Positions 2,059 to 17,625 of a stretch of DNA of 22,154 nt are shown here, piece by piece (position 1 is the first letter of the stretch; each line of letters begins with the position of its first letter). The notes below the pieces were generated by a model. The model did not search any database, was not told where the DNA came from, and saw only the letters and a list, made by a program, of their open reading frames with translations. The DNA is from a virus (taxonomy: Duplodnaviria > Heunggongvirae > Uroviricota > Caudoviricetes). The stretch lies in IMG/VR virus record IMGVR_UViG_2540341091_000004. One strand, written 5' to 3'. Made by a program: the position numbers and the translations under genes.

Positions 2059-2585
2059 TTGCGTAACTCCGATAACTCGTTAAAGCGTTCCATAAACATC
2101 CCGTAGGCATGGCCCGGTGCCAGTGGAATCACGTTGAACATCTCTGTTGCCGGGATACCTTCCAGTACAGGCCAGAAAGAGCCATCATCAAGCCCGAGAT
2201 CGCGGCGTTCGGTTGCCAGCATGATGAGATCGGCATATTTCACGGGCGTACTCATAACTGGGGGTAACCCGTATTTCTCACGGATTACGGCGTCTATTTT
2301 TTCTTCCATTTGTTTATAGTCAGGAAGAAGGCGTTTCAGTGGTGCGGGAATGTCCTGGCAATACGCTTCTGTTGCATCATGCATTAACGCTTCAAAAGCA
2401 AATTCCTGCGGCACCAGCTGGCTGCAAAGAACCGCATGTTGGGCGACGCTGTAGAAGTGCGAAAGATGACCGGCAAAGCGACAGATATTTGAAAGGGAAA
2501 CCGCGATATCGTTAATATCGATGTCGTCTTTATTTATCCTGTCATAATAAAAATGCTTCCCGGAAAAAGTTTTAATAAATGACAT
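2049..2585 (-). CDS. yfdR: HD-domain phosphohydrolase (YfdR-like, 178 aa)
   Basis: H...HD metal-binding motif (FAGHLSHFYSVAQHAV ... ALMHDATEAY). Start taken at ATG 2585 (MSFIKTF) with GGAG 6 nt upstream, rather than the ORF-track start at 2612. Symbol is from memory of CPS-53. Confidence 0.7.
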   Translation of the reverse strand: MSFIKTFSGKHFYYDRINKDDIDINDIAVSLSNICRFAGHLSHFYSVAQHAVLCSQLVPQEFAFEALMHDATEAYCQDIPAPLKRLLPDYKQMEEKIDAVIREKYGLPPVMSTPVKYADLIMLATERRDLGLDDGSFWPVLEGIPATEMFNVIPLAPGHAYGMFMERFNELSELRKCA

Positions 2586-2712
2586 TTTGTTCTCCACGTA
2601 TATGCGCTGCACCGCGCTGAATTCTGGTAAAAAGAATCCCTCACCATCCTGCGATTATTGAGTAAATTACGTTTCCATAAATGCCCCCGCAGGGGCATTT
2701 GCAGTAATGAAA

Positions 2713-3537
2713 TCAGGCGGTGAAAGTACCAATAAAGGTTTCTACTTTGCTGTCCTTGAATTTCTCAACAAGCAGATCACGAAATTCGTTAGCCATTTCT
2801 TCCTGCACCGCCTCCAGCTGAATAATGCGCAGAACCAGTACAGGACGATCGCCAGTGATAATACTGAGGCGTAATTTAAACGGACGTTCTTTCAGACCTT
2901 CAAACGGAACGCATTTAAATTCAAATGCCACTGGCATAATGTCTTTGGTCTTCGCTTCGACAGACTCCATCAGGGAGCGTTTGCCGCTGAAGTCATTATC
3001 TTCAAAATCAGCGGTCTGGTTTGCTTCAATCGTGATTTTACGGACAGCCGCAGCCGCTTTTGTTGCCTGAATGGCGTCACCATTAGCATCAAAGCCCACA
3101 AGGTAGTCGGCCCAGTCTTCAATCCATTCTGCCAGTGACTTCTGGGAGTTACGCTCGCCGTTAACAGACAACAGAGCAGAGAACGGTGCTGTCTTTTTCA
3201 GTTTGAGAGTGGCGGTGTTATCTGCGTGACCTGGTTCATCAATAGTACCCAGGTTAAGCACACTGACGGCACGCATATTATCGGCATCGATAAAGCAGCG
3301 GGTGCCTTCATCTGCAAGAACTTTAGAATAACGGGTAAAGTCATCGATGCTGGCAGTGGAAAGCGCACCACGGAAACGGAAGCGATTTAAATTAAATTTT
3401 TCCAGATCATGAATGCGGAAATTCTCAGGCAATGCCACAGCATCGGCACCAATCTTACTGATAATTTCATTAACACCCTGAGCAGAAATAAGGGCATGGA
3501 TTTGATTAATTGCGGTTGCGTCTAAGTTCTGAGACAT
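2713..3537 (-). CDS. yfdQ: DUF2303-family phage protein (YfdQ-like, 274 aa)
   Basis: Complete ORF, ATG 3537 with GAGGA RBS; length and position match YfdQ of CPS-53. Domain assignment is from memory, not a search. Confidence 0.6.
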
Positions 3538-3601
3538 AATAAGTCCTCACTATATAAAGATATTCAGTGATGAGATAAATAATCAGTTTATTAGAACGAT
3601 A

Positions 3602-3964
3602 TTAACGACCTGCTGCGCGGAGTTTTCCGTCAGGTTCACCGGCAAGAGTCAGTAATTGTCCCTGGTCTTCCTGCAGAATAGTCAGGCGACCACCGCGATT
3701 GACATACATCGGCGTTTCGGTGGTGTCTTCTTCGGAAATTTTCCCGCGGTTAGTTGGGCGAACATATGAGAGTTTGTGTTTGATTTTCACACGGTTCTCA
3801 TCAAACGGTTCGATTTCCAGATTGAGTGAGACCTTCCCTTTGGTTTTCGTGTTCATCACACCGGAAGCGACCTCACTGAGAACTGCGCCGATTTTGGTTT
3901 CAAATACGCCGCCGTCCAGCTCCCCGATAAATGCCTGCACATCAGTACTGCGTTCGCTAGCCAT
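3602..3964 (-). CDS. Hypothetical phage protein (120 aa; YfdP-like by size and synteny)
   Basis: True start is ATG 3964 with a GAGGAG RBS 7 nt upstream. The ORF-track start at 4087 is the lambda A start codon fused to 41 junk codons. Confidence 0.5.
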   Translation of the reverse strand: MASERSTDVQAFIGELDGGVFETKIGAVLSEVASGVMNTKTKGKVSLNLEIEPFDENRVKIKHKLSYVRPTNRGKISEEDTTETPMYVNRGGRLTILQEDQGQLLTLAGEPDGKLRAAGR

Positions 3965-4060
3965 TTTGCTGCTCCTCATCATATCGACCCTGCAAGGTCG
4001 GTTGGTTTCTCCACAAAACAGAGAAGAACACCTGCGGTGGCAGCCGCCCGGATGGATTGG

Positions 4061-4087
4061 GTTAACCTGACTGTTCGATATATTCAC
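4061..4087 (-). pseudogene. Terminase large subunit (lambda A) 5' remnant - start codon plus first 9 codons only
   Basis: Translation MNISNSQVN matches the lambda gpA N-terminus; homology to lambda stops immediately after GGTTAAC at about 4061. Confidence 0.7.
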
Positions 4088-4607
4088 TCAGCAACCCCGG
4101 TATCAGTTCATCCAGCGCGGCTGCTTTGTTCATGGCTTTGATGATATCCCGTTTCAGGAAATCAACATGTCGGTTTTCCAGTTCCGGAAAACGCCGCTGC
4201 ACCGACAGGGGGATCCCGTCGAGAATACTGGCAATTTCACCTGCGATCCGCGACAGCACGAAAGTACAGAATGCGGTTTCCACCACTTCAGCGGAGTCTC
4301 TGGCATTTTTCAGCTCCTGTGCGTCGGCCTGCGCACGCGTAAGTCGATGGCGTTCGTACTCAATAGTCCCTGGCTGGAGATCTGTCTCGCTGGCCTGCCG
4401 CAGTTCTTCAACTTCCCGGCGCAGCTTTTCGTTCTCAATTTCAGCATCCCTTTCGGCATACCATTTTATGACGGCGGCAGAGTCATAAAGCACCTCATTA
4501 CCCTTGCCACCGCCTCGCAGAACGGGCATTCCCTGTTCCTGCCAGTTCTGAATGGTACGGATACTCGCACCGAAAATGTCAGCCAGCTGCTTTTTGTTGA
4601 CTTCCAT
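4062..4607 (-). CDS. nu1: Terminase small subunit Nu1 (lambda-type TerS)
   Basis: 181-aa protein MEVNKKQLADIFGASIRTIQNWQEQGMPVLRGGGKGNEVLYDSAAVIKWYAERD... is essentially identical to lambda Nu1 as I recall it; complete ORF. Confidence 0.9.
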   Translation of the reverse strand: MEVNKKQLADIFGASIRTIQNWQEQGMPVLRGGGKGNEVLYDSAAVIKWYAERDAEIENEKLRREVEELRQASETDLQPGTIEYERHRLTRAQADAQELKNARDSAEVVETAFCTFVLSRIAGEIASILDGIPLSVQRRFPELENRHVDFLKRDIIKAMNKAAALDELIPGLLSEYIEQSG

Positions 4608-4830
4608 TGTTCATTCCACGGACAAAAACAGAGAAAGGAAACGACAGAGGCCAAAAAGCTCGCTTTCAGCACCTGTCGTTTCCTTTCTTTTCAGAGGGTA
4701 TTTTAAATAAAAACATTAAGTTATGACGAAGAAGAACGGAAACGCCTTAAACCGGAAAATTTTCATAAATAGCGAAAACCCGCGAGGTCGCCGCCCCGTA
4801 GCCTGTTGGATCGCCGGAAAGGACCCGAAA
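4608..4830 (-). other. cos site (cosB - cosN - cosQ); 12-nt cohesive-end sequence at 4785-4796
   Basis: Reverse complement of 4785-4796 is GGGCGGCGACCT. Minus-strand sequence from there to the Nu1 start matches the lambda left end, and 4797-4830 matches the lambda right end (...CGGCGATCCAACAGGCTACG). Confidence 0.85.
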
Positions 4831-9085: not shown

Positions 9086-9404
9086 ATCCAAAAAATACCC
9101 CTCCGGAGAGGGGTATCATACAAGGGGATGACCATGATGCATGGTGCCGGGTGCCTCCCGGTGAGTCCGGCATCAGCATACGAACCCGCGATTATCCCAG
9201 AACTGACTGCTGATTCGCCCCGCCGCTTAGGGGGATTCACCATGCGTTTTTTTATTTACAAACTCTTCGCCAGACAAACAACCATTAACTGGCTGAATTG
9301 TGAGGTATTTCAATTTTTAGAAAACTGACCAACCTCCGCTTATACGCCGGGCATGGAGCGGATACAAAAAAGCCCCGCAAAAGCAGATCAGAAGGATTCG
9401 TTGT

Positions 9405-9685: not shown

Positions 9686-10777
9686 TCACAAAATTGTATT
9701 TGCTGATAACATACTGATTTCCTGGATGGTCTGATTAAACCGCTCTGTCTCAAGCTCAACACCTAACGCCCGACGCCCCAGCGCCATTGCTGCTTTTATT
9801 GTGGAACCGGATCCCATAAAGAAATCAGCAACCAGATCGCCGGGTCGACTACTGGCATTGATTATTTGCCTGAGCATATCCGCCGGTTTCTCACACGGAT
9901 GTTTACCCGGGTAGAACTGAACGGGTTTATGCATCCAGACATCGGTATAAGGCACGGAGACTGATACGGAGAAATAGCGCCGGAGAGATTTAAACTCATC
10001 CAGCAATTCAGAATATTTGCGATTCAGTGAATCATAAGATGCCACCAACTGGTGGTGTGGTTGTTCCAGTTGTTGTTCCTGAAACTTCTCTGCCGCTATA
10101 CGGGAAAACAGTGCCTGTAACTTCCGGTAGTCAGCCTCATTCGGCAACTGCCACTGACTGGCACCAAACCAGTGGGAAACCATATTTTTCTTACCTGTGG
10201 CTTCGGCAATTTGTTTTGCCGTTATACCCAGTTCGGCACGAGCATCCCTGAAATACGATATCAGCGGTGCCATTATGTGCTGTTTGAGTTCCCTTTCTTT
10301 TGCCGCATAGCCGTCACTTTTGCCGCGATATGGCCCCTGGTAATGTTCAGCAAACAGAACGCGCTCTGTGGCAGGAAAATATGCGCGCAGACTTTCTTTA
10401 TTACACCCATTCCAACGTCCGGACGGCTTCGCCCAGATGATATGGTTAAGCACGTTGAAACGTTCACGCATCATGATCTCAATATCAGATGCCAGGCGAT
10501 GCCCACAGAACAGGTAAAGGCTTCCGGCTGGTTTCAGTACCCGCCAGAACTGGGCCAGACAGTGGTCCAGCCACTTCAGGTAATCTTCGTCCCCTTTCCA
10601 CTGATTGTCCCAGCCGTTGGGCTTCACTTTGAAGTACGGCGGATCGGTAACAATCAGATCAATGGAGTTATCAGGCAGGGACTGAATAAAATGCAGGCAA
10701 TCAGCGTTGATTAAATCAACACTGTTTATTTTTACAGTATTTTCATGGATCAGTAAGCGTAACTCTGGTAGGCTCAC
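9686..10777 (-). CDS. Orphan DNA methyltransferase, beta class (N6-adenine or N4-cytosine)
   Basis: Motif IV DPPY (IVTDPPYFKV) near the N-terminus and motif I FxGxG (FFMGSGST) near the C-terminus; architecture like YhdJ-type enzymes. GTG start at 10777 with weak RBS. No adjacent restriction endonuclease recognised. Confidence 0.85.
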   Translation of the reverse strand: MSLPELRLLIHENTVKINSVDLINADCLHFIQSLPDNSIDLIVTDPPYFKVKPNGWDNQWKGDEDYLKWLDHCLAQFWRVLKPAGSLYLFCGHRLASDIEIMMRERFNVLNHIIWAKPSGRWNGCNKESLRAYFPATERVLFAEHYQGPYRGKSDGYAAKERELKQHIMAPLISYFRDARAELGITAKQIAEATGKKNMVSHWFGASQWQLPNEADYRKLQALFSRIAAEKFQEQQLEQPHHQLVASYDSLNRKYSELLDEFKSLRRYFSVSVSVPYTDVWMHKPVQFYPGKHPCEKPADMLRQIINASSRPGDLVADFFMGSGSTIKAAMALGRRALGVELETERFNQTIQEISMLSANTIL

Positions 10778-10896
10778 TCTGCTTTTGCGCTAAAGCAGTG
10801 GGCCGTGGTTCGCTTGTGACAAGTAAGCATGAGCGAATGGCTGGCAGGTGCTACCAACACCCACCAGCCGCCCATTTTCACAGCAGGAAACCGCCA

Positions 10897-11100: not shown

Positions 11101-11419
11101 GTCTTTTTCCCTTCTGGTTAACATGACATACCAATAACTCTTGTCTAAAAAGCCAGCAAGATAAAAAGTCAGTATTCACGACCACCAGCGTGTTTACTGT
11201 GCTGCACCAAGTTTACAGGTACAAAAAAACCGCTCAGCGGCGGGTTTAAGTTGTGTGGCGAAGTAACCACTCTTAACACAGTAATCTAGAAAATGCGGAC
11301 CGCGTTAGTGATTTTTATCTGTTTTTCCATTATTTTTTTGCCACACAGCTTAAAACGAAAAATAAAGCAGGCGTTGCCAAACCTCACGGTGACAGTTGGC
11401 TTAGAATGAGGACATATTT

Positions 11420-12439
11420 TTGGATAAGTTTGATGAGATTCATGTAGACATTGAATCTGAGCAGCAAGCCTTCGATTTGCTTGAAAGCTATCTTGATGGT
11501 TATGGTTTACCTGACAGTTTAAGTTTCAACGGATGGCCAAACCTTACCATCAGATTAACCGGTGAAAAATTCAACAGATCGCTAACACCTTCAGTTATGA
11601 AGGGATTTGTTGAAATGCAAGCTCAAATCAACAAATCATATGCCCTTGCCAAGTACGGTGTCCCTGACGTCCGCAAACTGACCAAAGAAGAACTTGATGC
11701 CCTAGAAATAGAAGTTACGGTAGAACAGGGTTCTTCAATAGTAGAAATCAACATTGATGGCTTTTTAACCAAACTCACACAGGAACTTGTTGGTAAAATG
11801 AACGCAACTGAGATCATGTTTACTGTTCTCGGCGCAGCAGTCATCTGGGGCGGAGTAACAGTATTTAAACGGTTCTTGGACAACCGTAAAGATATTCGCC
11901 TTGCAGAAATTGCTAAGGATGGAGAGAAAGAACATCTCCGGACTATGCAGATCATGAGCGAGCAAGAAACTAAACGCCTGCGGGTTATTTCAGAAATGAT
12001 TGCGGAAAAACCACTTCTCGATAACATGGACCGTATGTCGTATGACGCTAAAACCCAAATGGTCAAATCCTTTGTGCGTTCAGATAACGCTCAAATTGAT
12101 GGCGTTACTATTGATTCTGAAATGGCGAAAGAGTTGGTTACGAATGCTCGTAGACGTTCATCAGAAATGAGGATTGATGGTATTTACCGAATTGAAGAAG
12201 TCAATAATACTGACCCAGAGAGTTTCAAAGTTAAGGTCCGACGCGTAGATACCGACCAACGTCTAACCTGCGTAGTTCAGGATGTTTTCCTTGATGAATC
12301 CGGAAACAAAGAAGCATTGCAGCGAGCTGAGTGGGAAAGAAAGCCTGTACATTTGAGCATTAACGCAAAACACGTCGATGGTGACATTAAGTCAGCAGTA
12401 ATTCTCTATGTTCGAGATGTGGAACAAAAGCCCGAGTAA
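11420..12439 (+). CDS. Membrane-anchored protein of unknown function (339 aa, single predicted TM helix); moron at the Q-lysis locus
   Basis: Only long plus-strand ORF in a minus-strand block; TTG start at 11420 with GAGGA 7 nt upstream; lower G+C than flanks by eye; hydrophobic segment IMFTVLGAAVIWGGVTVF at about aa 132-150; no recognisable catalytic motif. Confidence 0.6.
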   Translation: MDKFDEIHVDIESEQQAFDLLESYLDGYGLPDSLSFNGWPNLTIRLTGEKFNRSLTPSVMKGFVEMQAQINKSYALAKYGVPDVRKLTKEELDALEIEVTVEQGSSIVEINIDGFLTKLTQELVGKMNATEIMFTVLGAAVIWGGVTVFKRFLDNRKDIRLAEIAKDGEKEHLRTMQIMSEQETKRLRVISEMIAEKPLLDNMDRMSYDAKTQMVKSFVRSDNAQIDGVTIDSEMAKELVTNARRRSSEMRIDGIYRIEEVNNTDPESFKVKVRRVDTDQRLTCVVQDVFLDESGNKEALQRAEWERKPVHLSINAKHVDGDIKSAVILYVRDVEQKPE

Positions 12440-13845: not shown

Positions 13846-14643
13846 TCAATGAACGGTATCGAGCAGCTTTAACAGCTCAGGGAATCGGGATTCGAAGAAA
13901 TGCGGCTGCGTCTCGCGCGGATTTGCAGGACTGGTGATGTTCTTGCCGAACATGCAGCCTTTCGCTGTCAGCGACCAGAATTTTTTGATGTTGTTAATCG
14001 CGGTACGGCTGTATCGTTCGCGCTGCTCGACGATCCCCAGCTTCACCATCTGGTGATATGCCTGATTAGCTGTCAGGCGGATACCATACTGCTTCAGCAG
14101 TGCACTCAGTGACAGTGTCGGGCGACTTGAGCCATCGTGTGCATCAGCAGGAGCATCAATGGCATAGCGCGGTGCCAGATTCGGTAAGCCAACAGCCTCC
14201 TGGAGTTTCTGACAGGCACCAAGCACTGAAGAGTTAGACAGGTTTAACTCCCGGCGCATAAAGTCCAGCAGGATCACGCCAGCCTGCATCTTGTCAGCAG
14301 CCTGTCCGGATAATTTTTCCGGTGCGCTGGTTACCATATCGAAAGTACGGATCACCTTCAGATGGAATGACGGGCTGATCCACATTGCATAGGCATACAC
14401 CAGTTCTTTGCAGACATACGTCCCCTGGTTATTTCCGCCACGAATAACGTTAACTGGCTCTATATTGACCGAGTTGCAAATCTGCAACTCGCTTATTAAA
14501 CGTTCAGTTTGCTCATTGCGGAGCCAGAATGCAGGCTTATGCTTATCCAGAGAACCGGCAGCCCTGTGCAGATCGTTCAGGCTGTAACGACCATAAGCAT
14601 CACGACGAACTTCAATACCATCAATGACCATCAGATTATTCAT
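13846..14643 (-). CDS. KilA-N domain protein (phage antirepressor-like)
   Basis: N-terminal MNNLMVIDGIEVRRDAYGRYSLNDLHRAAG...KPAFWLRNEQTERLISEL looks like KilA-N; strong AGGAG RBS before ATG 14643. Confidence 0.7.
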   Translation of the reverse strand: MNNLMVIDGIEVRRDAYGRYSLNDLHRAAGSLDKHKPAFWLRNEQTERLISELQICNSVNIEPVNVIRGGNNQGTYVCKELVYAYAMWISPSFHLKVIRTFDMVTSAPEKLSGQAADKMQAGVILLDFMRRELNLSNSSVLGACQKLQEAVGLPNLAPRYAIDAPADAHDGSSRPTLSLSALLKQYGIRLTANQAYHQMVKLGIVEQRERYSRTAINNIKKFWSLTAKGCMFGKNITSPANPRETQPHFFESRFPELLKLLDTVH

Positions 14644-14662: not shown

Positions 14663-15052
14663 TCAGGCGGCTGCACCCGCCGGTTTCTCGTACTTACTGA
14701 TAGTGATCTCGACCTTCCCTTCCGGGATAACCGGTCCCCACTCCACCAGCATTCTTTTCACCTGACTGTCGTCTTCCCACACACCCGCATGGGTCAGGGC
14801 GTCAAACAGCGCCTTGTTATAGTTGTCCAGATCGCGGATCCGGTTATCCGGAGGAAACAACACGATCTCCACTGAAGCAGGTGCCGACGTTGGTTTCGGC
14901 AGACGACGTAACTGCTCAACTATTGCTGCGCACGCCGCGCTCTGGAATTTGCGCCCCGCTGCGCTTATCAGACTCTTACCAGCAAACGCCCCTTTGTTGG
15001 GGTGTCGCCTGTACGTGTTCACGCTGGGAGGGAAAGGCAAGATCAGCTTCAT
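14663..15052 (-). CDS. rusA: RusA-family Holliday-junction resolvase
   Basis: LPFPPSVNTYRR...RDLDNYNKALFDALTHAGVWEDDSQV matches the RusA signature (LPxPPSxNxYxR ... RDLDNxxKAxxDALTxAGxWxDDxQV). Confidence 0.8.
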   Translation of the reverse strand: MKLILPFPPSVNTYRRHPNKGAFAGKSLISAAGRKFQSAACAAIVEQLRRLPKPTSAPASVEIVLFPPDNRIRDLDNYNKALFDALTHAGVWEDDSQVKRMLVEWGPVIPEGKVEITISKYEKPAGAAA

Positions 15053-15375
15053 ACTTTCAGGCCCCTCTCATGTAACCAGTGGGCTGCACGCAGCCTGGCG
15101 TTTTCCTCACCGGCAAGCAGTGCGCGGATAATCCCGACCGCCTCGCTGTCGTCGTCCTTCACCGCGGTATGAAGAGTTATCCCCCGGGCCACGCCACGCT
15201 TTATCGTGATGACGCTTTTTTTCTCCAGTGCGCGAAGATGCTCCACCGCTGCATTCACCGAACGGTATCCCAGCATGGTTGCCACCTCCTGATTGGTTGG
15301 CGGAAAGCCACGTTCTTGCTGGTAAGAAATCAGCATATCCAGCACCTGCTGCTGGCATTGAGTTAACGTCGTCAT
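15049..15375 (-). CDS. LexA DNA-binding-domain-only protein (108 aa; no S24 peptidase domain)
   Basis: LTQCQQQVLDMLISYQQERGFPPTNQEVATMLGYRSVNAAVEHLRALEKKSVITIKRGVARGITL aligns by eye with the LexA N-terminus ([65 protein letters not shown]); the protein ends about 40 aa later. Confidence 0.7.
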   Translation of the reverse strand: MTTLTQCQQQVLDMLISYQQERGFPPTNQEVATMLGYRSVNAAVEHLRALEKKSVITIKRGVARGITLHTAVKDDDSEAVGIIRALLAGEENARLRAAHWLHERGLKV

Positions 15376-16025
15376 GCCGCCATCTCCCTGACCAGTTTTT
15401 CCGCCTGCTGGCGAACCTGCGCCAGAAAGGCCTCACCACATGCCTCAAGTTCATCGCGCCCGATGTAGCTGATTGCCGGTCCCTTCCAGGTCTTGTCGAA
15501 AACAGCAATAGCACCAGCGAAGAAAGCGCCTGTCGGCACCTGCTTCTCGTCCTTCGGGATAAACCAGGCTGGCAGTTCAAAACCAATACGCCCGCGAATA
15601 AAAGCAATATGGTCTGCATCTTCCGGCCACCACACTTCGCTGGTGGCAGCTTTGATCAGGAAAACATAGCGCCCGCCTTTATCACGCATGGCACTGGCAT
15701 GCTTCATGATGTAACGCATGCCGGTGATGTATTGCCCCTCATGCTGACTGGCGCGGCTGTACGGGGGATTACCAAAGGCAGCACCTTTAAGCTCCGCAAG
15801 ACGTTCTGACCAGTCATGCGCCAGCGCGTTGTCTTCCGCAGTGTAATACGCGGCGCATTTGGCGTTATCACCATCAGTAAACAGATCCAGAACAAACGGG
15901 CCAAACAGGGTGTTAATTCCCCAGAAAATGTTGTCCGGCGTGCGCCACTGATCGCCCACTTCCTTCAGTTCATGGGCTGGTTTGTTCCGCAGCTCCACCA
16001 GCGCCTGGCAATATTTATTACTCAT
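15372..16025 (-). CDS. Phage Dam-like N6-adenine DNA methyltransferase
   Basis: Catalytic NPPY motif (FGNPPYSRA); start ATG 16025 overlaps the upstream stop (TAATG). Position matches the yfdM methylase in CPS-53. Confidence 0.8.
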   Translation of the reverse strand: MSNKYCQALVELRNKPAHELKEVGDQWRTPDNIFWGINTLFGPFVLDLFTDGDNAKCAAYYTAEDNALAHDWSERLAELKGAAFGNPPYSRASQHEGQYITGMRYIMKHASAMRDKGGRYVFLIKAATSEVWWPEDADHIAFIRGRIGFELPAWFIPKDEKQVPTGAFFAGAIAVFDKTWKGPAISYIGRDELEACGEAFLAQVRQQAEKLVREMAA

Positions 16026-16513
16026 TAAGCCCCCACGTAATTCCCTGACAGATACCACTCTTCACCCGATGCAGCGCGCTTGCTGCTTTTCCGTAAACAC
16101 CGCTCACGACGCGCAAGAAAATTGTTTCGCTCTTGCTGGGAGTGGCTTTCACGGAATGCCGCCATCCACACCGTTGCAGCACGACGGTATAAGCCCCTGG
16201 ACTCCAGTTCTTCCGCCTGGCGGGTCAGGCACAAAATCACCCGGGGATCGTTAGTGCCGACATAGAAATTGCGCACAGGTCTGGATTCACGAACTGGTTG
16301 CGGTTCCGGCTCCTGCGGTATCTCAGTCAGCCGCGGGAAATGTCTGCGTGTATCCCCTTCACAACGGTGAGCCACACGCCCACTCTGACGTAACTTGCTT
16401 GCTGACTGCAGAACGCGCTGTCGTGAGTAACCTGCAAAAGCATCCGCAATGTCTCCGGAAGTACACCCCGGATGGGCTTCAATGAATTTCTGAACGTCAT
16501 TCAAAAGACTCAT
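16025..16513 (-). CDS. PerC-like putative regulator (YfdN-like)
   Basis: LESRGLYRRAATVWMAAF resembles the PerC-family core; ORF-track length of 164 aa matches YfdN. From memory only. Confidence 0.4.
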   Translation of the reverse strand: MSLLNDVQKFIEAHPGCTSGDIADAFAGYSRQRVLQSASKLRQSGRVAHRCEGDTRRHFPRLTEIPQEPEPQPVRESRPVRNFYVGTNDPRVILCLTRQAEELESRGLYRRAATVWMAAFRESHSQQERNNFLARRERCLRKSSKRAASGEEWYLSGNYVGA

Positions 16514-16515
16514 GA

Positions 16516-17289
16516 TCACCCCCTGAATCCTGCCGGGATCTGGCTGTAGTCCACGTTGTCGTAACTGGCTTTGAAGTACGGGTCTTCGCGTTTTTCGGTG
16601 TACGTGCTGACGGACGGCGATAAGCGCAGGGAAAGCTCATCCCATTTTTCCCGCAGCTTCGACGGGCTGAGCACGTTACGGCACCAGAACGGATCGCGAC
16701 TGACGCGGCTGTACATCTCGCAGATTTGTTTATGAGTACGACCATCCTGCACACACATCAGGCGAATTTCGTTTGCCCAGGCTGTCCAGTTCGGTTCTTT
16801 GGGACGAACCACCTCGCCGTCACATTCGGCGGCATGCTCGTACAGGGCGATGATTTTTTTCCAGAGCCACTGTGCGCAGGTCAAATCATCCTGCGTCCCC
16901 CACTGGCGCTTTTTAGGGCTGAATACAACCGCATCAGGATGGCGAGTTAAAAAATCCTGTTCAGCCGTCTGCGTGTCCGGTTGCGAAGAGTCCGGACGAG
17001 AAGGTTTTTTATCTGACGGATCATGTTTTGATTTTACTGACGGATCCCCGCCAGATTCTGACGGGTGAAAACCCGCTTTTTTGCCAGATTTCGACGCATC
17101 AAATTTTGACGGGTCAGATTTTGATGCGTCAGATTTTGACGGGTCAGAATCTGACAGTTGAGAAAATGCCGCTGCCTGAAGCTTCGCAACGTTAAGCTGA
17201 TAAACATTCGACGCATTGCGGTTACCCTGGCGACGCGCCTTACGCGTTAACCAGCCTTCTGCTTCCAGCCGTGCGATACCCGCTGGCAT
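16516..17289 (-). CDS. Replication initiator (O-like), 5' end replaced at a rearrangement junction; possibly non-functional
   Basis: Contains an in-gene iteron array encoding SDSDPSKSDASKSDPSKFDASKSG and a conserved-looking C-terminal domain. The first codons (MPAGI) are read from lom-derived sequence, so the native N-terminus and promoter are gone. Confidence 0.5.
   Translation of the reverse strand: MPAGIARLEAEGWLTRKARRQGNRNASNVYQLNVAKLQAAAFSQLSDSDPSKSDASKSDPSKFDASKSGKKAGFHPSESGGDPSVKSKHDPSDKKPSRPDSSQPDTQTAEQDFLTRHPDAVVFSPKKRQWGTQDDLTCAQWLWKKIIALYEHAAECDGEVVRPKEPNWTAWANEIRLMCVQDGRTHKQICEMYSRVSRDPFWCRNVLSPSKLREKWDELSLRLSPSVSTYTEKREDPYFKASYDNVDYSQIPAGFRG
17012..17160. repeat. Iteron-like direct repeats (about 8 copies of tYTGACGGRTCA) - candidate replication origin
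   Basis: Copies at about 17012, 17037, 17057, 17089, 17105, 17120, 17135 and 17149; the last four are spaced about 15 bp apart; each is a short palindrome (TGAC...GTCA). Confidence 0.55.
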
Positions 17290-17625
17290 GAAGATTCCGT
17301 GCGTAACCGCTGGTTCAGCGTGATGGCGGGGCCGTCTGTGCGCGTGAATGAATGGTTCAGCGCGTATGCGATGGCGGGTGTGGCTTACAGCCGTATTTCG
17401 ACTTTCTCCGGGGATTATCTCCGCGTAACTGACAACAAGGGGAAAACGCACGACGTGCTGACCGGAAGTGATGACGGTCGCCGCAGCAACACGTCTCTGG
17501 CGTGGGGGGCTGGCGTGCAGTTTAACCCGACCGAATCCGTGGCCATTGATATTGCTTATGAAGGCTCCGGCAGTGGCGACTGGCGCACTGACGGTTTCAT
17601 CGTGGGTGTCGGTTATAAATTCTGA
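17275..17625 (+). pseudogene. lom: lom 3' fragment (Lom/Ail/OmpX outer-membrane protein, N-terminal ~95 aa missing)
   Basis: DTRWHEDSVRNRWFSVMAGPSVRVNEWF...DGFIVGVGYKF matches the C-terminal half of lambda Lom; homology begins abruptly at about 17275 with no signal peptide. Confidence 0.85.

Follow-up and report, generated by a model that had tools for sequence, protein, structure and literature searches.

The window analysed here, a stretch of 22,154 nucleotides (nt) of a Caudoviricetes virus (IMG/VR record IMGVR_UViG_2540341091_000004), encodes on its minus strand a protein of 108 amino acids (aa), here called mini-LexA, in which the DNA-binding head of LexA is followed not by the self-cleaving S24 domain but by a short tail of two helices. 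The reading favoured here, at a little less than even confidence and on the grounds of sequence comparison, is that mini-LexA may be a RecA-blind surrogate of LexA, able to re-close LexA operators. The protein belongs to the phage-encoded truncated LexA homologues, a kind already known, and its gene is common and already annotated ('LexA family protein', 'transcriptional repressor'), the latter label being an annotation of the family by homology.

Domain organisation of mini-LexA

The open reading frame (ORF) is present exactly as a preliminary description of the sequence had placed it, and the LexA winged helix claimed there over about 65 residues is borne out. In Pfam, LexA_DNA_bind (PF01726) matches residues 1-65 along the whole profile (1-65/65) with E=1.2e-17 and 63.8 bits at a cut-off of 23.7; it is the sole Pfam domain in a scan of the 108 aa, and no Peptidase_S24 match is found. 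The lexA equivalog model of NCBIfam, TIGR00498, aligns at model positions 1-91 of 203 only and scores 66.1 bits, below its cut-off of 110.95. The top PDB match (phmmer) is the N-terminal domain of E. coli LexA, 1lea, which aligns with residues 2-70 without gaps (E=4.6e-15), full-length LexA being also among the best matches, and E. coli LexA is 42% identical to mini-LexA over residues 1-90 (BLASTP, E=1e-20). The AlphaFold model, a monomer computed from a 20-sequence family alignment with a predicted local distance difference test (pLDDT) of 84, consists of three helices and a two-strand wing, followed by two extra helices at residues 74-87 and 93-102; it superposes on the LexA-DNA complex 3jso with a root-mean-square deviation of 1.1 Å over 68 residues (Foldseek), and the values for 1lea and 3jso lie at 1.1-1.3 Å with 48-50% identity. 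A different winged helix-turn-helix family was considered and rejected, since Pfam returns LexA_DNA_bind only and the fold matches to MarR, DtxR, and GntR are far weaker than those to LexA.

The tail is modelled with a pLDDT of about 87-89 and its pattern is kept among relatives down to about 40% identity; it is presumed to be an oligomerisation or partner-binding module. The domain that carries the Ser119/Lys156 dyad in LexA is absent, the chain stopping at residue 108. The preliminary description had stated that both this dyad and the Ala-Gly cleavage site are lacking: the first part stands, according to Pfam and TIGR00498, while the second has to be corrected, given that mini-LexA has an Ala88-Gly89 pair which both HMMER and BLASTP align to the scissile bond A84-G85 of LexA. 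G89 varies among the relatives and the A88-G89 segment is predicted to be helical. This alignment suggests that the captured lexA fragment may have reached through the hinge, and the conclusion drawn in that description is unchanged: because no catalytic domain is present, mini-LexA is unable to cleave itself, the Ala-Gly dipeptide notwithstanding, and RecA* therefore cannot inactivate it by the LexA route. In comparison with E. coli LexA, mini-LexA shares the fold and the numbering of the DNA contacts and lacks the S24 domain responsible for dimerisation and peptidase activity; like the LexA 1-84 fragment and LexA(Ind-), it does not undergo the inactivating self-cleavage stimulated by RecA*. 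Cleaved LexA is removed by ClpXP and Lon (PMC3159453), and the C-terminus of mini-LexA reads ...GLKV.

The helix-3 residues of E. coli LexA in contact with DNA are Ser39, Asn41, Ala42, Glu44, and Glu45 (PMC3091678). At identical numbering mini-LexA keeps four of these five contacts (S39, N41, A42, and E45), with valine in place of E44, and the wing residues R64-G65 are also retained. S39, N41, R64, and G65 are invariant throughout the family that shares the tail, down to 39% identity, and position 45 is E or D in the SfV, mEp390, and EPP-1 clades and in part of the P0135 clade. The head of mini-LexA thus looks like a LexA head of the CTGT type, though not in all clades.

Distribution and selection

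Mini-LexA is a real gene, not a chance ORF, and is under strong purifying selection: it is intact in 80 of 80 near-identical IMG/VR loci, which segregate 55 synonymous and 14 non-synonymous variants, with a ratio of non-synonymous to synonymous polymorphism (pN/pS) of 0.08 and a winged helix that is almost invariant. Its residues 1-108 align with the complete profile of phrog_362 (1-106/106, E=1e-58). SfV orf42 and PHROG 362 represent its own family, the sole difference being the defective state of the remnant in which the window copy lies. The protein is found in 61 phage records, among them SfV, SfII, SfIV, cdtI, mEp460, and the Stx2a and Stx2c phages, whose copies are 94-99% identical to it (94% for SfV orf42), and a 1.5-kb module is matched in 2672 of 5426 complete E. 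coli genomes, with at least 80% of its length covered in 1660 of them.

Searched exhaustively with HMMER, a set of 1.8 billion representative proteins yields 3263 relatives at E<=0.001, the best 150 of which are mostly short proteins made of the LexA head only, and a sub-family with the same two-helix tail extends to about 40% identity in several genera. The C-terminal part takes different forms among the relatives. The 72-aa Edwardsiella EPP-1 type is a LexA head without a C-terminal module; a 158-aa Klebsiella type joins the head to a C-terminal domain of roughly 90 aa; and in a Proteus phage the LexA DNA-binding domain is fused to the NinF zinc ribbon (LexA-DBD::NinF), upstream of NinG. In four members (P0132, P0138, P0152, and P0155) two LexA DNA-binding domains stand in tandem in one chain, which is another route to a 'dimeric' LexA head without S24. 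Finally, in-frame LexA_DNA_bind::RusA fusions of 202-208 aa, in which the tail is deleted, are found at three loci (L391, at 3998-4624, L398, and L409) in two diverged sequences; they join a complete LexA DNA-binding domain to a complete RusA, in a context of methylase, X, Ant, DUF968, and Q. Mini-LexA has no PADLOC defence-system match, and a component of a defence system was rejected as a candidate role on that ground.

SOS-linked operons in related phages

LexA boxes were scored by a weight matrix derived from SOS boxes of E. coli, and the bit scores are approximate; on the same matrix the known E. coli boxes range from 12.9 to 27.0 bits with a median of 20.6, and all the key boxes described here also fit the plain patterns CTGT-N8-ACAG or CTG-N10-CAG.

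In the P0135 clade, whose members are 45-97% identical to one another and about 40% identical to the window protein, 28 of 34 loci have a LexA box of 17.6-30.2 bits at a fixed distance (about 440-690 nt) upstream of mini-LexA, and these boxes occur in at least seven sequence variants, all of which keep CTGT-N8-ACAG. At two loci (L017 and L018) sigma70-like -35 and -10 elements are directly followed by a box of 21-26 bits, and then by a small phrog_1813 ORF and mini-LexA. The operon of a Klebsiella sub-clade is composed, in this order, of the box, DinI (PF06183, E=1e-23), phrog_1813, mini-LexA, and phrog_1212. In the 72-aa clade that has the DNA-binding domain only, the box precedes a Rha/Ant-like gene (PF09669; 'anti-repressor Ant' in PHROG) directly followed by mini-LexA in 13 of 14 loci, and the recognition helix, RSPNAAE[E/D]H, is nearly that of host LexA. 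No such box is found in the clades with a methylase upstream of mini-LexA, SfV and the window among them. In the boxed clades mini-LexA belongs to the LexA regulon, alongside SOS modulators. The SOS connection proposed in the preliminary description is therefore favoured by context in the relatives, where boxes drive mini-LexA operons that include DinI or a Rha/Ant-like gene, and finds no counterpart in the window, where no box is near the gene; as a whole, the comparison supports an SOS-linked role as credible.

Klebsiella-type prophages (L304-L325) also contain a nin-region 'SOS island' with two boxes (L321:4837-6527), in which a perfect consensus box stands before an ORF of 109 aa that has no Pfam match and begins with MGFPSPAKDY, a start that appears UmuD'-like by eye; the second box is the one at the head of the genes from DinI to phrog_1212.

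LexA boxes at the late methylase and cI genes

The window has a single strong LexA box (22.3 bits), located at the 5' end of a late-region DNA methylase gene, and the whole genome of SfV likewise has one strong box, at the same site (L007:34170-34189). The matrix scan gives no other site of 10 bits or more in the window, and none near mini-LexA, rusA, or the KilA-N gene. The preliminary description had proposed that the protein could gate the downstream KilA-N gene; gating by way of an SOS box finds no support, since the lone strong box of the window lies at the late methylase, at a distance of 4.3 kb, and only one of 80 related loci has a box directly after rusA.

The methylase box covers codons 3-10 of the gene and reads CTGT-N8-(A/C)CAG in seven of seven diverged phages from Escherichia, Shigella, Citrobacter, Hafnia, and Providencia, in which the synonymous positions of the arms are fixed and a synonymous position of the spacer varies. 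The enzyme is of the M.EcoGII family, whose adenine methylases are non-specific and toxic. The M.EcoGII paper names phage 1720a-02 and mentions neither LexA nor SOS (PMC5778455); the same phage (hit H96) is present in both the methylase and the mini-LexA match lists. The box at the methylase start could be an extra lock on this toxic, non-specific enzyme. The idea that mini-LexA and the late methylase with its box always occur together was considered and rejected: about 27 phages share both genes and many have only one.

Two side observations concern the same gene. At 10740-10750 of the window one A is missing from an A-run (ATGAAAATACTGTAA here, ATGAAAAATACTGTA in SfV), which puts the natural ATG of the methylase out of frame, and the methylase of the remnant is therefore probably damaged at its N-terminus or re-started. 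Upstream of the gene, a non-coding leader of ~135 nt (window ~10748-10885, minus strand) is conserved from E. coli phages to those of Hafnia and Providencia; RNAalifold folds it into two hairpins with 43 pairs, six of which have compensatory changes, and no Rfam family matches it. In the late transcript this leader may function as a structured, regulatory RNA element.

The strong boxes of SfV-type phages are confined to the interior of genes. A second conserved site is found in 21 of the 80 SfV-type loci, where a box of 26-27 bits (TACTGTTTTTATATACAGTA) lies 2.9-5.3 kb upstream of mini-LexA in the linker-coding part of a cI-like S24 repressor gene (L020:2444-2463, in the ORF at 1980-2672 on the minus strand; also L024, L175, and phages SfII, mEp460, and Stx2a_1447). 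This cI box is conserved 20/20 where its flanks have diverged (cI 73% identical). Mini-LexA is present in 10 of 10 distinct phages of the phage collection with a box-bearing cI and, in an unbiased search of IMG/VR for the exact 20-mer, in 14 of 14 cI-type loci that extend far enough, one of which is diverged (cI 73% and mini-LexA 51% identical). The DNA from cI to mini-LexA is a mosaic of at least three architectures with different replication modules, and linkage may contribute to the pairing of the cI box with mini-LexA but does not fully account for it.

Proposed mechanism and alternative explanations

According to the proposed mechanism, mini-LexA would be a winged-helix head captured from a gammaproteobacterial lexA, with a two-helix tail replacing the self-cleaving domain. 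In an intact SfV-type phage the gene order leads one to expect its delayed-early synthesis from the pR transcript, with translation coupled to that of Dam and RusA. The tail would pair mini-LexA, which is predicted to bind CTGT-N8-ACAG operators, and, after the destruction of host LexA, the protein would re-close the promoters that LexA controls, resulting in a RecA-blind reset or timer for SOS-driven expression. The candidate targets in SfV-type phages are the cI box (in phages of the SfII/mEp460 type) and the start of the toxic M.EcoGII-like late methylase, those in relatives are the dinI, Ant, and own-operon promoters, and the SOS genes of the host are probably targets too. The outcome proposed for mini-LexA, the damping of SOS by a mobile element, is that of the DinI homologues of prophages and the PsiB proteins of plasmids; DinI and PsiB act on RecA* and are not homologous to mini-LexA, which would instead act at operators. 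A wider version of this proposal is rather doubtful: mini-LexA would be a RecA-blind SOS reset switch in a large share of E. coli, Shigella, and Klebsiella prophages, which re-occupies operators including the cI and methylase boxes, sets the duration of SOS, makes induction irreversible, times the hypermethylation of phage DNA, and silences antirepressors under LexA control in competing prophages; in some phages it might act while bound or fused to the RusA dimer.

Several points weigh against a LexA surrogate that re-closes operators. Specificity may differ from that of LexA, because mini-LexA carries the substitutions E44 to V, P40 to V, and R28 to N with respect to E. coli LexA and because position 45 is L, T, or S in other clades. 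What the boxes of the relatives prove is that host LexA controls these operons; they do not prove that mini-LexA binds there, and no box lies within about 2.9 kb upstream of mini-LexA in the 80 SfV-type loci, the window included. The scan of the element for CTGT-N8-ACAG that had been suggested with the preliminary description gives no significant enrichment in the window, with 12 sites at up to one mismatch versus 7.4 expected, a number reached by 8 of 100 shuffles. The link of the late methylase to mini-LexA is only partial, and the associations of mini-LexA with both the cI and the methylase boxes could be due to linkage. In the literature searched the family has annotation-level mentions only and no functional study was found. 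Finally, gp6, the precedent that has been characterised, is an activator of transcription with a palindrome of its own (PMC6182141).

This precedent, from the Bacillus thuringiensis tectivirus GIL01, is the model for the explanation that comes closest to the favoured one and that is nevertheless unlikely on the whole, in which the LexA head has drifted to a site of the phage's own and activates or represses phage genes, the SOS link being the timing of its synthesis by host LexA in some phages. GIL01 gp6 is a protein of precisely this kind, a truncated LexA homologue, in essence the winged helix without the cleavage domain, that is made from a LexA-repressed promoter and activates a late promoter by way of the site GaCACA-nn-TGTGaC at the -35 of that promoter (PMC6182141); it shows that heads of this type can drift in specificity. 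The promoters of several mini-LexA relatives are likewise repressed by host LexA, unlike the window gene, which has no upstream box. The differences from host LexA at helix positions 40, 44, and, in some clades, 45 fit a gp6-like regulator, and so do the PHROG and RefSeq labels of the family, which are only generic. On the other hand, S39, N41, A42, and mostly E45 are retained, one clade has the host helix almost unchanged, a conserved alternative palindrome was not identified, and, whereas gp6 activates a late promoter, the late genes of these lambdoid phages are already under antitermination by Q (PF06530). The two proteins also differ in architecture, gp6 being a tail-less protein of 66 aa and mini-LexA having a conserved two-helix tail, and they do not align with each other at E<=100 (BLASTP), so that they are to be regarded as independent captures from different host lexA genes.

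The gene order suggests a further role, as a DNA-binding accessory of RusA or of the upstream methylase, in which the winged helix would serve to tether or regulate the resolvase, with the tail binding to RusA and not to itself. Mini-LexA is directly upstream of rusA, with overlapping stop and start codons, in 80 of 80 SfV-type loci and also in the mEp390, P0125, P0157, P0189, and 158-aa Klebsiella types; the three natural fusions to RusA have lost the tail, the LexA-DBD::NinF protein of the Proteus phage precedes NinG, and a methylase (Dam or a C5 type of roughly 650 aa) is often directly upstream. However, nin regions are densely overlapping in general, hence coupling is weak evidence, and in the fusions the dimeric RusA could stand in for a dimerising tail, which fits a LexA mimic too. 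In at least 22 DinI-linked loci with a protein of the tail type, rusA is absent within 6 kb on either side, and in the clade with the DNA-binding domain only rusA belongs to a different unit, upstream of the SOS box. The 22 loci without rusA exclude RusA as a partner needed throughout the family, and the accessory role in any form is judged improbable. An inert passenger, namely a decaying or functionless fragment of captured lexA hitch-hiking in prophages, is very improbable. The degraded state of the window prophage, with fragments of O, integrase, portal, and terminase genes and a frameshifted late methylase start, would be compatible with it, as would the failure to find any promoter for the operon beyond the weak one that the SfV authors put forward for dam; against it stand the pN/pS of 0.08 with all 80 copies intact and the winged helix almost invariant, the conservation of the family, tail included, to about 40% identity in several genera, and the presence of mini-LexA in the functional phages SfV, SfII, mEp460, and cdtI and in Stx2 phages.

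Genomic context of the remnant

The features of the window are collected in the table below. The window represents a lambdoid prophage at the argU site that is defective and reduced to a remnant. Its sequence is identical to a part of the E. coli E3 genome that adjoins a tRNA-Arg gene between fimZ and ompT/envY, the position of DLP12 in K-12. Mini-LexA sits between the replication genes and Q in the lambdoid early-right operon (nin region), and the minus-strand block reads O', PerC, Dam, mini-LexA, RusA, KilA-N, DUF968/HNH, and Q, followed beyond Q by a reverse-oriented gene of 339 aa, a small ORF, the late methylase, and the lysis genes. Shigella phage SfV has the identical order of Dam, orf42 (its mini-LexA), RusA, KilA-N, DUF968, and Q. 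Translational overlap with both neighbours, as previously claimed for mini-LexA, is confirmed, the plus strand reading tcat at each of the two ATGA overlaps. As the start of Dam is at 16025, in agreement with RefSeq and SfV, and not at the GTG at 16058, PerC, Dam, mini-LexA, and RusA all overlap head to tail.

Features of the window discussed in the text (positions from the first letter of the window)
Feature	Position	Strand	Remarks
Mini-LexA ORF	15049..15375	-	ATG start, 108 aa plus stop; SfV orf42 / PHROG 362 family; RefSeq WP_000210190.1 'LexA family protein'
LexA-type winged helix-turn-helix, codons 1-70	15166..15375	-	Helices 6-22 and 28-35, recognition helix 40-52, wing strands 56-58 and 66-68; Pfam, PDB, AlphaFold
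Two-helix C-terminal tail, codons 74-108	15052..15156	-	Helices 74-87 and 93-102, where LexA has the S24 domain; AlphaFold
ATGA overlap, Dam stop / mini-LexA start	15372..15375	-	Read from the sequence
ATGA overlap, mini-LexA stop / rusA start	15049..15052	-	Read from the sequence
Sole strong LexA box, CACTGTTTATTTTTACAGTA	10720..10739	.	22.3 bits; 5' end of the late methylase gene; candidate target
Late-region N6_N4 DNA methyltransferase, M.EcoGII family (SfV orf48 homologue)	9686..10777	-	
5'-truncated replication protein O remnant fused to lom fragment	16516..17277	-	RefSeq annotation of the identical E3 locus
PerC-family protein (yfdN-like)	16025..16519	-	Stop overlaps the Dam start (TAATG)
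Phage N6-adenine methyltransferase (Dam, PF05869)	15372..16025	-	Directly upstream of mini-LexA
RusA Holliday-junction resolvase	14663..15052	-	Directly downstream of mini-LexA; adjacent in 80/80 SfV-type loci
KilA-N domain protein (PHROG 129 'transcriptional regulator')	13846..14643	-	19-nt gap after rusA

The integrase, portal, terminase, packaging, and replication protein O genes are present as fragments, with a lom fragment and a tail-fibre gene adjoining that of O. Deletion junctions are seen at ~17275-17300, where the truncated O meets the lom fragment of opposite orientation, and at 2443-4607. The O/lom junction marks a deletion by which the immunity region, N, pR, cro, and cI are gone and the natural promoter of the operon is lost; no operon promoter was found in the window, save the weak dam promoter already mentioned. 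Because the remnant lacks pR and the immunity region, the copy of mini-LexA in the window may be silent or poorly expressed.

Other features were observed in the remnant. The reverse-oriented 339-aa gene (11420-12439, plus strand; PHROG 6191, unassigned function) is moron-like and is inserted between Q and a putative late promoter/terminator region, with a terminator-like hairpin at 11229-11241 on the minus strand. Between the late methylase and the holin gene lies the Rfam small RNA STnc100 (9086-9274, minus strand; 114.5 bits, E=9e-25), and the serum survival gene iss is next to the lysis cassette.

Biological significance

The SOS response governs mutagenesis, persistence, the induction of Shiga-toxin phages, and the competition among prophages. 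Mini-LexA is encoded in Stx2a and Stx2c phages, in serotype-converting Shigella phages, and in cdt phages, and the module that surrounds it is found in roughly half of the sequenced E. coli. Even if the protein has a specificity of its own, the comparisons define SOS-wired nin-region operons, in which DinI, Rha/Ant, and phrog_1813 occur with mini-LexA, together with conserved intragenic LexA boxes, of neither of which a description was found in the literature searched. If the proposed role is true, a non-cleavable LexA surrogate would add to SOS control a level that has gone unrecognised, and the elements that make it would be the same ones that SOS induces.

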